Assembly: GCA_964016885.1 (NCBI GenBank)
Contig: OZ024742.1
Coordinates: forward strand, 248,124,001-248,188,000
Direction of reading: 5' to 3'
DNA length: 64,000 bases
From: Eledone cirrhosa
Lineage: Eukaryota
In this document: piece by piece, positions 2,196-62,097 of the stretch
Numbering within the stretch: the first letter of the stretch is position 1
Layout: each line of letters starts with the position of its first letter
Position numbers and translations under genes: made by a program
Notes under the pieces: model-generated
Databases searched by the model: none
Told to the model about the DNA's origin: nothing
What the model saw: the letters and a program-made list of their open reading frames with translations, nothing else

Positions 2196-3177
2196 TTCTT
2201 TATTAGCCACAAGGGCGCAACAAGAAAGGGGACAATACAAAGACATGCCGGGGATTTTACATACAGTCGTGTAAAAAATATAAAAACAAACAATTTCAAC
2301 AATCGAAATCCCCAATAGGGGGGAGGCGCCACAAATGGGTTGTTTAATACCCCGTCGATAGAACAACCCTCAACTCAAGGAGCGTGTTGTGCAAGTGCTC
2401 CTTTCTTCCTTTTGCTCTCTTCCTCAACCTACAGGCTTATAAACAGAGAAGGCCCAATCACTCGGGCCATTTTTGCTTCATTCACCCACCTTTCAGTAAA
2501 TTTACTGGGGTGCAGTGCCTCTCTCTCCACCCTGATTCTCCTTCTAAAGTGATACTTAAAGAATGGAATCAATTGTTGTCCGGAGAGAAAGGCATCTGTC
2601 CTCAGTCCTCTCAACCTCGTCCACCATATAACTTCTTTCACCATAGCCACCGTACAGAGGAAAACCGCCTCTCTTTCGTTTTTGAAAGAGTCTGGCGGTT
2701 TGATCCTTACTATGGACTCGGCAGTCAACTGTATTTGTCCCATACGCGACAGCAGTTGTTCTGCATAGTTCCACAGGTCGCTTACGCCCGGGCAGTGTAC
2801 AATTGCGTGCAGAACTGTTTCAATGTCCTGCGCACATCTTGGACACGTCCTCTTGGAAGGATCCCTGCCAGGGCGTCCGTGCCTGTAGATCTTGTCACGA
2901 ACCGGTAGAGCTCCTCGGTAGCACTGCCAGGCCAGGGACCTCTGGAAGTTGTCCATAGGTCCCGGGCGGAAAGTCCTACCAAACATACTGGTGAGCTCAT
3001 CGTCTTCGACGCCCAGAGTCTCTCCGAGCACGTCGTCGCCCTTGTAACGTACAATCCCTCTATAGAATGTCGAAGTGGAGTCTCCACTGATTGCTGCGCC
3101 CGCTTGCCAGAGGACTGTGAGCGCCTGAGCGCATTCAATGTGCCAGGCGCCCATCGTTTTCGGTCTTTTCTTCACCC
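2195..3177 (-). mobile_element. 5'-truncated L1/Tx1-clade LINE (ORF2 C-terminus plus 3' UTR)
   Basis: ORF 2429-3175 has a zf-RVT-like motif (WQCYRGALPVRDK..CPRC..ETVLHAIVHC..W). 3' end GTGGCTAATAAAGAA. (GATA)n on both flanks. Confidence 0.85.
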
Positions 3178-3758
3178 AGATAGATAGATAGATAGATAGA
3201 TAGAGAGAATGATTAAAACAGTGAGAATTCCGTCAAATTACCCCGATGTCGAAACGTAGCATTTAAACATAGTAGGCTAAAGCAGAGTTGACCTCGGAAC
3301 GCGGATAGTAGATAACAAGCATTAATTGCATCGGGCGGGCTTAAAGCAGTTTAGATGTCGTCCACATCTCTAATATATAAACAAGGTTTATGAGAGACAT
3401 CTACACATAATGCGTCAGTGATATAATAACAACTACTTAGTCGGTCCGATCTTGTGTTAGAATAAATTTAGACGAATGGCGTCATGGAGAAAATCGAAAC
3501 AGAAACTCGGCAGCCACGAAGTGGGCTTTGTAACCATAGAATAATAACACGAATTATATATATATATACTTATCTCTCTCTCTGTATCTGTGTGTGTGTG
3601 TAGGTGTATATGCATGAATATTAATACATGTACAACCCATGTTTCTTCTAGCGTCTGAAGATCAAAGTTTGGTGAGCTATGAAATCACAATGAAATCAAT
3701 CGGGTGACGGGTTTGTCCTTGTGCTAAATGATAATTAAACTAAACTAGTTATGCGTAT

Positions 3759-9328: not shown

Positions 9329-9773
9329 AGAAGTTCTATTTCAATTGTTGGGATACAACAAGCAAATATTTTTATAACTGATATAAAGCACTCAACAAAT
9401 AATTGGAGTAAAAATACGATATTAACAAATGGAAACTATATTTATAAAACCATATTTATTTCATTATACATATTTCAAGGACACCAAGTTAAATTATGGT
9501 GTGCTTTCATCAGATAAAATATAATATAGAGCAGTTTTATAAATAAATATTGACTAACCCTTAAATAATGCAACCATTACTGTTGGAAGGTCCCGAGAGC
9601 TTCCAACAGTAATGGTTGCATTCTTTAAGGGTATGTCAATATTTATTTATAAAACTGCTCTATATTATATTTTATCTGATGAAAGCACACCATAATTTAA
9701 CTTGGTGTCCTTGATATATGTATCATGAAATAAATATGGTTTTATAAATATCGTTTCCATTTGTTAATATCGT
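9328..9773. mobile_element. Fold-back HHR element (family A)
   Basis: Inverted arms ~9415-9588 / 9600-9773; left arm extends to 9328. Intact HHR at 9457-9521(-); GAAA>GATA copy at 9668-9732(+). Confidence 0.88.
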
Positions 9774-9788
9774 ATATATATCTATATA

Positions 9789-9833
<45 letters not shown>

Positions 9834-9959
9834 AGGAGGTGAGTTTTATTGTAGTACAATAAAGCAATGCAGATATCGAATAAGAAGCACTCAACAGTTT
9901 GTAGGACTGGAGTATACATAATATATAAGAACAAAAGATGGTTAAAAGAGTTCCATGTA

Positions 9960-10026
9960 TTTTATTATGCGCATTTCAAAAACAAATATCATCATGCAAT
10001 AATATTTGTGTTTTCATCAGATAAAA
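9960..10026 (-). ncRNA. Minimal type I hammerhead (family B)
   Basis: Reverse complement of 12801-12867. Confidence 0.85.
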
Positions 10027-10391
10027 CAGGAAGACATGATATGAAGGTTAAAAAAACACTTGTGGATAGTGCAGTTTTAAGTCAACATATGAAAAGTAGT
10101 TTTAGATTGATGTGTGATATTGGGAAAAATATTTTACTTTGAGGGGTGGGTGGAAAGGATGAAAAAGAGGAGGAGATGAGAGTAAAAAGTGGAGAGGGAG
10201 GAGTATAATGAGGAAGGATGAGATGGGAGGAGAGATGGGTGATAGAGAGAGAGAGAGATAGCTTTTATAACTGAGAAAAATATATTGTTTTACATAGAGA
10301 GGTTGAAAACCGTTGGAAGATAATGTATAAATTAAAAGAATTTGAAAATTAACGAAGAGAAAAATAATGTAAAGTTAAGGTTTGTATATTG

Positions 10392-10560
10392 AAGGGTTTA
10401 ATAATATGTGCGATGAAAAGAAAATGTTAATATGTATTAAGAATAATATTTAAGGGTTCAATAATATGTGCGATGGAAAGAAAAAGTTAATATGTATTAA
10501 GAATAATATTTAAGGGTTTAATAATATATGCGATGGAAAGAAAATGTTGATATGTATTAT
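10392..10560. repeat. ~60-bp tandem repeat x3 inside the family B terminal repeat
   Basis: Unit AAGGGTTTAATAATATGTGCGATG..; mirrored at ~12265-12435. Confidence 0.85.
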
Positions 10561-12800
10561 TAAAGTAAGGATATATTGAGATGAGCATGAATAAGTTAGA
10601 TGAAAGAGAGAAAAAAATAATGAATTGAGGATGAATAATCTAACGTCAAAAAAATGTTTATGTTTACGAAGGATTTTTACAAGGTGATAGAGAGTAAAAA
10701 TGCATTGTATTATGTAATAATTGTTTCTATGTTAGGCATAAAAACAATGATAACCTAAATTATGTTAATTTTAAATCTAACCATCCTACTAATATCAAGA
10801 ATGCTATAGTTAGTAATATTGGAAAAAGAATATCTAACCTATCTTCTAATAAAAACATCTTTGATGCTAACGCCAATTACTATAACAACGCGCTTTCTAA
10901 GGCCGGCTATCCTGATAAAATCAAATATATTAAAGAAACAAATTCTAGAAGATCTTACAGTAGAATAATTAATCATGATCATTCCAATAACTTTAATAAA
11001 AGACCTAGATACAAAAACATAATCTGGTATAATGCTCCTTTCTCCATCTCTATTAATAATAATATTCCTAAATTATTCTTTATTGCCTTAAATAAATGCT
11101 TCCCTCCCTCACATATCTATAGTAAAATATTTAACAAACACACTATAAAATTTTCCTATTCAACATCCTCCAACATTTCCAACATTATCTCTAAACACAA
11201 CAATAAAATACTAAATACTAAATCTCTTCCTTCCAACACAGAATATCATAATAATAGTAATAGTACTCCCGACGTCATTGTAAATCCTAGGCTAATTTCT
11301 GCAAACCCAAATACAACGTCAAACACAACTTCGCTAAATGTTCTTAATCCCATTCTAAATCAAGAAACTATTATTCCTATCGCAAATAACTTCTCCAATC
11401 CAATTCCTTCTATAGATAATATTAGGTCACTCGTTAATAATCTCTCTAATCGCAATTGCAATTGCCCTGTTAAAAATAAATGTCCTCTAAACAACCGTTG
11501 TCTTGATAAAAACTTAATTTTCGAATGTAAAGTTATAACTGACCTTCACCTATTTTGGCTCCACTTCCACCTCCTTTAAAGCTCGTCTTTATAACCATCA
11601 TTCGTCTTTTAAATACAAACTTAAAAGAACCAACACGGCTCTCTCAGAACTCATATAGTCCTTGAAAGACAAAAATATTAAATATAGCATCTTTTGGAAA
11701 AAGGTTTCTTCTGCTTCTCCATACTTGAACAGTTCTCTATCCAAGATTTGCAATCTCTGTCTAAATGAAAAATTTACCATTATATCTGATTTAGATTCTA
11801 TAATAAATAGACGCACTGACTTGTTTTCTCTCTGCTTGCATAAATTCCACAAAACATTCCACAAAGTATACAGCTAATATCCAAAACTTTATCAATTTAG
11901 AATCTTTTTCTCAAAGGCCCATATATATATATACTTCTTTAAAAATATACCCATCTTTCTACCTTATTTCAAAGTTATTTATTATACATTATAATACTTG
12001 TTACTCATTCTATATCTCTCCTATTTATCACTTCCCTTTCTTCTCTTTTTCTCTTAATGTCTAACCCCTAATCTGTACCTTTTCTCACTGTTGCCTAACA
12101 TAGAAACAATTATTACATAAAACAATACATTCTTACTCTATATCACCTTGTAAAAATCCTTCGTAAACATTTTTTTGACGTTAGATTATTCATCCTCAAT
12201 TCATTATTTTCTTCTCCCTTTCATCTAACTTATTCATGATCATCTCACAATATATCCTTACTTTAATAATACATATCAACATTTTCTTTCCATCGCACAT
12301 ATTATTAAACCCTTAAATATTATTCTTAATACATATTAACTTTTTCTTTCCATCGCACATATTATTAAACCCTTAAATATTATTCTTAATACATATTAAC
12401 ATTTTCTTTTCATCGCACATATTATTAAACCCTTCAATATACAAACCTTAACTTTACATTATTTTTCTCTTCGTTAATTTTCAAATTCTTTTAATTTATA
12501 CATTATCTTCCAACGGTTTTCAACCTCTCTATGTAAAACAATATATTTTTCTCAGTTATAAAAGCTATCTCTCTCTCTCTACCACCCATCTCTCCTCCTA
12601 TCTCATCCTTCCTCATTATACTCCTCCCTCTCCACTTTTTACTCTCATCTCCTCCTCTTTTTCATCCCCACCCCCACCCCACCCTCAAAATAAAATATTT
12701 TTCCCAATATCACACATCAATCTAAAACTACTTTTCATATGTTGACTTAAAACTGCACTATCCACAAGTGTTTTTTTAACCTTCATATCATGTCTTCCTG

Positions 12801-12867
12801 TTTTATCTGATGAAAACACAAATATTATTACATGATGATATTTGTTTTTGAAATGCGCATAATAAAA
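12801..12867 (+). ncRNA. Minimal type I hammerhead (family B)
   Basis: ttttat-CTGATGA-aaacacaaatat..atatttgttttt-GAAA-T-GCGC-ATA-ataaaa; palindromic stem III. Confidence 0.88.
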
Positions 12868-12897
12868 TACATGGAACTCTTTTAACCATCTTTTGTT

Positions 12898-12937
<40 letters not shown>

Positions 12938-13379: not shown

Positions 13380-14282
13380 CTGAATACAATGAAAACCATG
13401 ACCGCAGGAAGCCACTTTGTTCTGGCTCCCTCTAATATCCTCCTCAGCCTCAGGATGTGGCTGGTGGTTGTTCTACCCTCTCTGAAGCCGTCTGGTTGTC
13501 CATGAGCTTCTTCTCCATCTCACGCTGGATCCTGTTAAGAATCATCTTGTTGAGGGTCTTTGCCACAAGTGAGGTCAGTGAGATTCTCCTGTAGTTGTTG
13601 GTGTTAGAGAGATCTCCCTTCTTTGGCACTAGGATGGTTTTCATTGACTTTAGGAAGGCCTTTGATTTTGTGGACCGTCACTGCCTGGTGAAGAACTTAC
13701 AGGCTTATGGAATCCCCAAGAATATAGTGGACCTGATATCACTGCTCTACACCAACACCAACGCCCAAATCATTACACCTGATGGGATGACAGAGTTCTT
13801 TGAGATACTGGCTGGAGTGCTCCAGGGAGATAGATTGGCTCCCTACCTTTTTATCATCGTAGTGGACTATTGTATGCGACTGGCACTGGAGAAAAACCAG
13901 GACTCTGGCTGTACTGTGGCACCGGCTCAGAGATTAATGGCTCTGGACATTAATCAGTATACACTGAGGATGAAAAACTCAGAGCTGAATAGGAGCCTCC
14001 CAAAATTCAGCTCAAAAGTGACACAGAGGAGACTGAGGTTAGCAGGACATGCTTACCGACATCCAGAGTTGACATTGCACTCAGTGCTCCTGTGGGAGCC
14101 CTTACATGAACACACTGCAAGAGGAAGATCAAGGTTAATCTATGTTGATGCTCTAAGGACAGACACTGGTCTGTTGTTGGAGACGCAGGACATAGCAGCG
14201 ATAATGAGGGACAGAGACCGCTGGAGAGAACTCATCCATGGATCTTGGGAATTTTACCCGCCCTAGAATGGCTGAATACAAT
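13380..14282 (+). mobile_element. RTE-clade LINE fragment with 5' inversion and target-site duplication
   Basis: Minus part: PKKGDLS..NYRRISL..GFR. Plus part: FIDFRKAFD..GVLQGD.LAP.LF..RRLRLAGH. CTGAATACAAT occurs at 13380 and 14272. Confidence 0.88.
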
Positions 14283-28700: not shown

Positions 28701-29258
<558 letters not shown>

Positions 29259-29479
29259 TATATATATATATATATATCAGGAGAAGAAATTTAAAATGCG
29301 ACTGGAGTCTTTTAAGGATATTTATTTATTTCCTTTACGGGATTCAGAATTCTTATGATTTTCAAAAGTAAAATTGAGGGTTTGCACAGGCCAACTTGTT
29401 ATATTTGTCGCCACAGCGTGATCCTTACTGCGGCCAAAATTATATGATCCTCAACAGGTCGATTCGTTGGGTCCCTCCT

Positions 29480-38043: not shown

Positions 38044-38144
<101 letters not shown>

Positions 38145-38145
38145 C

Positions 38146-38745
38146 AAGTGTTAAAACTGATATAAAGCCCTCAACCGATTACTGGAGTAAATATTCAATA
38201 TATTTATAAATGGAAACTATATTTATAAATCCATAATCATTTTATTATATATATTTCAAGTGCAACCAAGGCAATTTTGGTGTGCTTTCATCAGGTAAAA
38301 TACAAAATATGTTTCATAAATGTTGACATTCGCGTAGAAAAACATATTTTGTATTTTATCTGATGAAAACACACCAAAATTGCCTTGGTTGCCCTTGAAA
38401 TATATATAATAAAATAATTATGGTTTTATAAATATAGTTTCCATTTATTAATATATTGTTTATAAAACCATAATTATTTTATTATATATATTTCAAGGGC
38501 AACCAAGGCAATTTTTGTGTGCTTTCATCAGATAAAATACAAAATATGTTTTTCTACGCGTATGTCAACATTTATAAAACATATTTTGTATTTTATCTGA
38601 TGAAAGCACACCTAAATTGCCTTGGTTGCACTTGAAATATATATAATAAAATAATTATGGTTTTATAAATATAGTTTCCATTTATTAATATATTGAATAT
38701 TTACTCCAGTAATCGGTTGAGGGCTTTATATCAGTTATAACACTT
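38146..38745. mobile_element. Four-armed fold-back element (family A relative) with 4 HHRs
   Basis: HHRs at 38239-38301(-), 38352-38416(+), 38475-38539(-) and 38589-38653(+): tattttat-CTGATGA..GAAA-T-ATAT-ATA-ataaaata. Confidence 0.92.
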
Positions 38746-38804
38746 CAGTAATGCACTGGCTAATTACTGGCCTTGTGCCTAAAGTAGAAACAATTAATAT
38801 ATTG

Positions 38805-38915
<111 letters not shown>

Positions 38916-57402: not shown

Positions 57403-57560
57403 TATAAGATCAAAAGATGGTTAAAGGAGTTCCATGTATTTTATTATGCGCATTTCAAAAACAAACATCATCATGCAATAATATTTGTGTTTTCATCAGA
57501 TAAAACAGGAGGACATGATATGAAGGCTAAAAAACACTTGTGGATAGTGCAGTTTTAAAT

Positions 57561-60110: not shown

Positions 60111-60262
60111 TAAATATGAGCTACAGAATATCCGGTTACTAGCAACAGCACACATTCTTTCTCTACAATGAAAACCACTTTTCCTCTAGATTCAAGGCCT
60201 GAAACCGGCAATAGAGAAACAAATGAGTCTAAAGAAAATAATATAACAACAACAACAACAAC

Positions 60263-60298
<36 letters not shown>

Positions 60299-60299
<1 letters not shown>

Positions 60300-62097
60300 T
60301 GGTGCCTCATTTTTGGATCACCAAAAGCCTGGAGATCTTCAGGGTGGCAGATAACATCAGACAGTTGCTGGGCAGGAGTATGGGGTCCTGGGAGACAGAG
60401 TTGACATCAACTGGAGTATCCTTGGGAAGCGTGAAGATCAAGAGAGGTATCTTCCAGGGAGATAGCCTGTCCCCTCTGTTGTTTGTCCTTGCCCTGATGC
60501 CCTTGACCATTATGCTGCGAACAGTGAGAGCAGGATACAAGTTGGGAAAGGGAGAGCTTACCATCAATCACCTCCTCTTCATGGACGATCTTAAGCTCTT
60601 CAGGAAAGTGAGAAGGAGTTGGATGTGCTTGTTGACACTGTCCGTATTTTCAGCAGTCATATATGTATGCAGTTTGGTATTAGTAAATGTGGAGTCATTG
60701 TGATGAGGAGGGGTAGGTTGAGCAGAAGTAACGGAATCCAGATACCAACAGGTGAGATGATAAAGGAAATTGACTCTGAGGAAGGATACAAGTATTTGGG
60801 CGTTCTGGAGGCTGATGGCATAAAGAACAAAAAAAATGAAGGAATTGTTAAGAACTGAATACATTCGGAGAGTAAGGAGCGTATTGAAGTCACATCTGAA
60901 CAGCAGAAATGCCATAAGCGCAGTAAATTCCCGAGCTGTGTCTATTATTAGGTACAGTGCGGGAATTCTGAGATGGAATGTTGCTGAACAAAAAGAAATG
61001 GATAGGAAGACTAGGAAGCTATTGACTATCTACAACATGTTCCACAAGAGGAGTGATGTCGATAGACTCTACCTAAGGAGATCTGAGGGTGGAAGAGGTC
61101 TTATCAGCATAGAGGACTGTGTTCAGATGGAGAAAAACAACCTATACAAATACGTGACCTATAGTAAGGAGCCAATGCTCAGAACTGTACTGAAGGAGGG
61201 GACAGTAGGCCAGGGGATGTCCAAGGAGGAAATAACATCAAGGAGGAAGAGCAGCCTTAAGGGAAAATCCCTTCATAGTACCTTCTTTGAGAAAACTGAA
61301 TTTAGAGATCCACAGACATGGAACTGGTTGAGAAGAGGAGACCTCAAAAAGGCTACAGAAGGAATGCTAATGGCTGCGCAGGAGCAAGTCCTCAAAACGA
61401 AGTGGTTGAAGCACCATATTTACAAGGAGGAGGCTAGCCCACTGTGCAGGATCTGTGGAGAGAGAGAGGAGACTGTGGCTCACATTGTGTCCGAGTGTAA
61501 ACACCTAGCCCGGACCCACTATAAGGGCTGGAGACACGATGTGATGGGCAGGGTGATCCACTGGCACCTGTGCAAAGTAAACAATTTACCACATTCTGAG
61601 AAATGGTATGAGCATAGGCCAGAGGCGGTGATGGAGAACAATCAGGTGAAGGTGCTGTGGGATTTTAGGATACAGACGGACAAAAAACTGGAACACAATA
61701 GACCTGACCTGGTGGTTGTGGACAAAGAAAAAAGATCGTGTCTGATTGTGGATGTGGCCTGCCCTTTCGACACGAGAGTGCAAGAGAAGGAGAGGGAGAA
61801 AATTAACCGATACCAGGACCTAAAATGGGAGGTGAAAAGGATTTGGAACTGCCATGAAGTCAAAGTGATCCCGATTGTCATAGGCGCACTGGGGACTATC
61901 TCCAACAGTTTCCAGGGATGGTTAAAGAAAATCGGCCCCTTCACGCTTTTTGGAACGCTTCAAAAGGCATGCTTGCTGGGAACAGCAAGAACCCTCCGAT
62001 ACGTCCTGAATATCTGAGGCTGCAGGTAGTGGCTTGATATTCATTCCAACGGACTTTCCAGTTAACCAACATCAATGACTGAGATTCAAGGAATAAC
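60299..62097 (+). mobile_element. 5'-truncated R4/Dong-like LINE
   Basis: RT (RGIFQGDSLSPLLF, HLLFMDDLKL, YKYLG), CCHC (CRIC..HIVSEC), RHD, RPD..D..K endonuclease. Two frameshifts. (TAA)n on both flanks. Confidence 0.92.

Follow-up and report, generated by a model that had tools for sequence, protein, structure and literature searches.

The segment at positions 38146-38745 of the window (the whole 64-kb stretch of DNA that was analysed) is best explained by the fold-back of a terminal repeat (pLTR) of an abundant Penelope-like element (PLE), followed by reverse copying of the resulting hairpin at a SINE-like insertion. This would leave a palindrome of 600 nt, whose four hammerhead ribozymes (HHRs) are all predicted to be locked into double-stranded RNA. 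We give this explanation a probability of about 0.8. It accounts for the cassette by two known processes acting in sequence, and the equal spacing of 237 nt on both strands is the geometric result of copying a palindrome. We regard the cassette as a transposon accident with viroid-like geometry, which probably either does nothing or gives rise to double-stranded RNA.

Anatomy of the palindrome

The cassette forms a single inverted repeat, whose arms of 287 nt (38146-38432 and 38459-38745) are 97% identical and enclose a loop of 26 nt; each half is also a hairpin in its own right, and the whole is predicted to fold as one rod of -411 kcal/mol. To its left lies a (TA)n microsatellite (38058-38141), the usual insertion site of the PLE family concerned, copies of which are found in (TA)n. 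The left half begins with A1 (38146-38315, minus strand), the long arm left by the first insertion of the pLTR, continues through the 25-nt loop of the first fold-back, J1 (38315-38339), and ends with the short inverted arm, A2 (38339-38458, plus strand), at the family's usual short-arm boundary. The right half repeats these elements in reverse: A3 (38459-38552, minus strand) is a reversed copy of A2, J2 (38553-38575) of J1, and A4 (38576-38745, plus strand) of A1. It is followed directly by the 3'-terminal 50 nt of a ~188-nt SINE-like repeat, truncated at its 5' end (38746-38795, plus strand). A 13-bp direct repeat, with its left copy at 38447-38459 and its right copy at 38793-38805 (both plus strand), the latter followed by (TA)n, is the putative target-site duplication of the SINE-like insertion. 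The initial annotation contained neither this direct repeat and SINE-like fragment, which bound the right half, nor the two broken helix pairs in each HHR that are discussed below.

Its description of two HHRs per strand, all with intact cores and with the same cuts, is confirmed. A motif scan finds plus-strand cores at 38360 in A2 and 38597 in A4, with predicted cuts after 38408 and 38645, and a minus-strand core at 38531 in A3, with its predicted cut at 38483/38482. The fourth, on the minus strand in A1 (core at 38294, predicted cut at 38246/38245), has an intact core but escaped the scan because its first stem I pair is a C.A mismatch. All four are type I ribozymes with an 8-bp stem I, a long stem II, a short palindromic helix III and AUA at the cut. 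From the cut coordinates, the HHRs of either strand are 237 nt apart, as had been reported, giving a hypothetical plus unit (38409-38645, 23% G+C) and a hypothetical minus unit (38246-38482). Alignment of the arms also bears out two finer points, namely that at the GC[A/C]CTT site both outer copies carry A and both inner copies C, and that the two fold-back junctions, J1 and J2, match each other. The aligned arms show 10 differences in 287 columns; ADAR-type hyper-editing was rejected as their source, the differences being mixed substitutions.

An Rfam scan of the 64-kb window gave 0 families at the gathering score, ARAGORN found no tRNA gene within it, and no host exons near the cassette were recognised among the 27 frames scanned.

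Could the palindrome be an assembly artefact arising from fold-back reads? Palindromes are prone to assembly error, and none of the listed contigs or RAD reads crosses J1 or the centre, family copies swamping the matches, with depth zero over J1 at 100% likeness. The two halves, however, are distinguished by substitutions at 10 of 287 sites. Contigs built from the short reads of one sample, possibly that from which the assembly was made, agree with the left end, private letters included (38140-38208), and with the private letter of A3 (38486-38545), in both cases with 0 differences and at a depth of ~9-11. The target-site duplication and the SINE join, moreover, are not features of an artefact, and we consider this explanation very improbable.

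The Penelope-like family and the four-hammerhead layout

What kind of element supplied the unit? When one arm was used to search its own genome, 1506 first-look candidates were obtained (a number of candidates, rather than a count of exact HHR motif copies); 40 were scored, the best being 94-96% identical. An inverted arm of at least 115 nt lies adjacent in 12 of the 28 other best loci, and a shorter arm in 2 of the 28. These arms end near A2's boundary, beside (TA)n, and their fold point is variable. A 3' tail of 42 nt, absent from the cassette, is present in 26 of the 28 best family matches. Since the relatives show the same arrangement of arm, loop and boundary, positions 38146-38458, the cassette's left half, are an ordinary fold-back insertion truncated at its 5' end.

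At two loci the family unit flanks an ORF of the RT/GIY-YIG type: in L037 an inverted arm and a forward pLTR persist together with remnants of the ORF, and in L055 a 743-aa frame lies between two pLTRs. A piece of the ORF drew 36340 first-look candidates in a genome search. The Atlas clusters nearest to the family ORF carry HTH_animal, GIY-YIG and RVT_1, at 0.95-0.98, and read by eye it contains YRDD and GIY-YIG-like motifs and, in L055, a Cys-rich linker; a Zn-finger-like linker between RT and EN is given as a feature of Neptune clade PLEs in excerpts of PMC8557442. Pfam, applied to the window's PLE-like frame and four family ORFs, and a PDB sequence search did not recognise the protein. Judged by its sequence, the family is a Penelope-like element, with an HHR in the pLTR, an inverted 5' arm, an optional tail and an AT-rich target. 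The cassette itself has no remaining ORF sequence. Its derivation from a PLE end, which the initial annotation had proposed, is near certain.

The likeness to truncated PLEs with minimal HHRs, as far as the available parts of PMC4209133, PMC8557442 and PMC3846280 describe them, extends to the type I HHR with a short palindromic helix III in the pLTR, the pairs of HHRs on opposite strands, separated by a few hundred bases, the palindromic fold junction, the optional 3' tail and the (TA)n targets. These sources report, respectively, dual minimal HHRs on opposite strands, 100-700 bp apart, near PLEs; inverted 5' pLTR copies and a 30-40-bp tail in PLEs; and palindromic PLE junctions interpreted as self-priming. 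In a portion of PMC11167929, internal RT start sites are held to explain the PLE tail. The cassette differs from these truncated elements in that its fold-back has been duplicated again, giving four equally spaced HHRs, and in that the ORF sequence is gone. A MITE or foldback DNA transposon with terminal inverted repeats was also considered and was rejected, the junctions being single-copy and the ends being PLE and SINE boundaries.

Other remnants of mobile elements are present in the window. A second PLE-like element, at 9840-12900, has long inverted pLTRs with HHR motifs at 10020 (minus strand) and 12807 (plus strand), and its ORF remnant (10698-11579) shares 45% identity over 188 aa with the ORF of the cassette family. 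HHR-bearing pLTR pieces also occur at 28800-29270, 9330-9780 and 57445-57499, the first two being single fold-backs with short-arm/long-arm geometry like that of the cassette family. LINE-type remnants with RVT_1 or zf-RVT matches lie at 2429-3232, 13595-14266 and 60242-62017.

How unusual is the four-HHR layout? Convergent HHR motifs within ~290 nt occur at 72 loci, and the 50 of these that were listed, the window included, were examined. A (TA)5 or longer run lies at the centre of 45 of the 50, the cassette's centre being without (TA)n, and three alternating intact HHR motifs are present at 15. The same four-HHR order is found at five of the 49 other listed loci (L086, L169, L176, L178 and L181), and the idea of a unique layout was rejected on this account. 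At these five the spacings are unequal (322-704 nt) and no inverted repeat extends across the centre; each is a pile-up of two fold-back insertions, from different families, in one (TA)n. Among the 50 listed convergent loci, four HHRs derived from a self-copy are seen in the window only, and a search of the literature by title found no paper title on a self-copied four-HHR genomic cassette.

The initial annotation had suggested a genome search for further copies of the fold junction. This gave 2 exact matches in 3.0 Gb, both within the cassette; the junction at the centre has 1 match, the cassette itself, and a convergent pair of the cassette's subfamily with a gap of 60 nt or less occurs once in the genome. 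With both junctions confined to one locus, it follows that the cassette has not spread.

Two other arrangements were seen. At L154, L177, L168, L077, L084 and L076, pLTR arms of the same family stand tail-to-tail about a central (TA)n, with 97.5-100% identity, the reverse of the usual head-to-head layout. L170 (G000:C7:48614600-48616470) has an inverted repeat spanning ~1040 nt (97.6%) that contains HHR first halves with the downstream part replaced.

Folding and the prospects of cleavage

Would the four hammerheads work? Whichever strand is transcribed, each HHR is preceded by its own near-perfect complement (complement, HHR, complement, HHR). As equilibrium estimates, the folding predictions put the cost of opening an HHR at 3.8-6.1 kcal/mol in isolation, at 88-94 kcal/mol in the whole transcript and at 77-94 kcal/mol in transcripts stopped just past the cut site. 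In a transcript beginning in J1, the predicted cost for A2 is 6.8 kcal/mol until A3 is made and 47.5 kcal/mol thereafter, and A3 is made before the dimer partner, A4, exists. On these models the ribozymes are likely to be blocked by the long hairpin. Avsunviroids must form active HHRs in both polarities during transcription (PMC12662183); the cassette is predicted not to do so, the complement always being made first. If it were transcribed, the predicted output would be a near-perfect 287-bp RNA hairpin, destined for double-stranded RNA pathways (editing, small RNAs) and not for circles. A search of sequencing runs listed no RNA run as holding the sequence.

The hypothetical 237-nt circles are predicted to be 80-85% paired (z = -21.6 against shuffles), in agreement with the earlier view that the released unit is largely self-complementary, and the plus and minus units are identical at 215 of 237 positions. 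Such strong self-pairing is simply what an inverted duplication gives. The catalytic cores are unchanged in all four HHRs, and 2 of the 18 helix pairs are broken in each, one shared and one private, with none compensated. The family controls have 0 broken pairs in 23 of 28 copies and one in 5 of 28, a sample biased towards undamaged or young copies because it was chosen as the best BLAST hits.

These results bear directly on the most far-reaching suggestion of the initial annotation, that the cassette may be a genomic template for rod-like circular RNA carrying a ribozyme on each strand. Transcription of either strand, cleavage as a double hammerhead and ligation would then give a 237-nt rod-like circle with one ribozyme in each polarity. 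The four intact cores, their equal spacing and the palindromic short helix III are all consistent with such a template, and its size and low G+C content recall avocado sunblotch viroid (PMC12662183). Animal tandem HHR units do yield circles, as stated in the available part of PMC7229834, and excerpts of PMC11167929 describe one PLE hammerhead that is protein-assisted, and dispensable for insertion in vitro; a transcript starting in J1 would, in addition, leave A2 briefly free. Yet the predicted block applies to both strands and to part-length transcripts, it reaches A2 even with a J1 start once the partner HHR has been made, the broken pairs are uncompensated and neither junction has a second genomic copy. 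The minimal HHRs of PLEs, moreover, cleave weakly even as dimers, according to PMC4209133 in the part available. The suggestion is not supported, and we think it extremely doubtful that the cassette is a working template. Slightly less probable again is a de novo proto-viroid route, in which a PLE protein or a start within the loop would let one two-polarity HHR unit, whether the cassette or one of the pile-ups (at least five), release a viroid-sized rod-like circle.

With avocado sunblotch viroid (Avsunviroidae, PMC12662183) the cassette shares a size near 246 nt (237 nt for its unit), the rod fold, an HHR in both polarities and a short helix III that requires a double hammerhead. The presence of HHRs in both polarities of the unit (246-401 nt in avsunviroids) is a likeness at the level of sequence. 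The cassette, however, is chromosomal DNA and not an RNA replicon, it shows no sign of replicating, and its ribozymes are near-exact mutual complements, giving uninterrupted stacks of 33-36 bp. Viroid rods, in contrast, are interrupted by frequent bulges. Animal non-LTR retrozymes, as described in parts of PMC7229834 and 10.64898/2026.07.22.740005, share PLE-related type I HHRs, 170-400 nt apart and on one strand, but are head-to-tail repeats of an amplified monomer for which cleavage and circles are reported. In the cassette there is no head-to-tail monomer tandem; the arms alternate, the junctions are single-copy, and the unit, likewise single-copy, includes its antisense sequence and, according to the folding predictions, would not cleave.

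If circles were made, the cassette would be a candidate for an intermediate in the retrozyme-escape origin of viroid-like RNAs, an intermediate that is still missing according to the review PMC8781251, in the part available. On present evidence its value is more that of a cautionary example and a fossil. In genomes rich in PLEs, hammerheads on both strands are easily produced and do not by themselves point to a viroid, and exact inversion is predicted to disable the very ribozymes that it duplicates, an obstacle that models of viroid origin have to explain.

Origin of the second fold

How did the hairpin come to be copied? The 3' end of the SINE-like repeat abuts the cassette's pLTR site at 75 exact genome matches, compared with 0 for a control pattern. 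Among the 73 joins examined, the window included, 48 have direct repeats of 10-21 nt, 14 have repeats of 7-9 nt and 11 have none, several of those with 7-8-nt repeats and long 'extra' stretches being spurious matches. Sequence of the pLTR lies upstream in 62 of the 73, and the SINE-like fragments range in length from 23 to 190 nt. The fixed 3' end, the variable 5' truncation and the flanking direct repeat of 10-21 nt are signs of SINE-like insertion, from which we infer the label SINE for the ~188-nt repeat.

In the cassette, the 13-bp repeat encloses both the copy and the SINE-like fragment, so that the unit bounded by the duplication is the reversed hairpin plus the SINE end; and since this repeat matches the target-site duplications of the SINE-like repeat, the SINE insertion is likely to have made the second fold. 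One site separates long from short arms in the left and right halves alike, implying that the first fold predates the copy. Together with the matching junctions, this agrees with the initial annotation in that a pre-formed hairpin was copied in inversion. Its broader proposal, that PLE termini built the structure, stands as regards the origin from a PLE pLTR but not as regards PLE termini acting alone, the SINE-like insertion explaining the second fold better. We conclude that the second fold was likely made by SINE-triggered copying of the neighbouring hairpin.

The events may have run as follows. A 5'-truncated pLTR would have entered (TA)n as a long arm, loop and short inverted arm, the anatomy seen at 38146-38458. 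A SINE-like repeat, of a kind that often targets this pLTR site, would then have inserted at the short-arm end, generating the 13-bp target-site duplication; its cDNA would have halted at 50 nt, the gap being filled by a 286-nt copy of the adjacent hairpin. Copying could have begun when the upstream DNA end snapped back on itself, or when the reverse transcriptase switched templates, and neutral decay would have followed. Excerpts of PMC11702581 describe L1 insertion sites that carry local inverted duplications and templated DNA. The cassette shares with them a truncated retro-insert and reversed local DNA, here within a 13-bp duplication; it differs in being an aged germ-line event in an invertebrate-type genome, with a SINE/LINE pair, and in that the DNA copied is a transposon hairpin. 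On this explanation, the locus records a SINE-like insertion with 286 nt of adjacent DNA reverse-copied.

Several features count against the SINE step. The 13-bp repeat is AT-rich and coincides with the sequence at which short arms of the family usually end, and could therefore be an abortive PLE start instead of a SINE target-site duplication. Microhomology is weak at both new joints: at one, the 5 nt at 38141-38145 (plus strand) agree with the end at which the SINE-like fragment is truncated but are shifted by 2 nt, and at the centre 1-3 bp are shared. Of the 73 insertions, that of the window is alone in having a long inverted insert templated by local DNA between direct repeat and SINE (286 nt, 96.5%), so there is no second example; at L119 an 11-nt reversed local copy lies between repeat and SINE. 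Private changes number 8 on the left and 2 on the right, although equal numbers would be expected after a single copying event (p = 0.11).

A second fold made without the SINE would have arisen by a fold-back during replication or repair, at a hairpin prone to cruciform formation beside an older SINE remnant, or by two-ended PLE priming on a transcript from a hairpin source. Both halves can indeed be read as the same cDNA from nearly one start point, the usual end of the family's short arms recurs at the right end, and (TA)n-centred long inverted repeats are common among the listed convergent pairs. The cassette's centre, however, lacks the (TA)n present in 45 of those 50, and its fold junction occurs at no source locus elsewhere in the genome. 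The direct repeat, moreover, has the start and length of the SINE's duplications, at a site used at least 75 times, and the end of the copy coincides exactly with the SINE truncation point. We consider an origin without the SINE unlikely, and prefer SINE-triggered copying.

The occurrence of the SINE-like repeat at least 75 times at one pLTR site, the short-arm boundary, marks a hot spot common to two unrelated elements (L061-L072, L088-L147). At L137 a 127-nt run of a 10-nt unit lies ahead of a 23-nt SINE stub, and at L010 and L025 short-arm starts are repeated at the insertion junctions.
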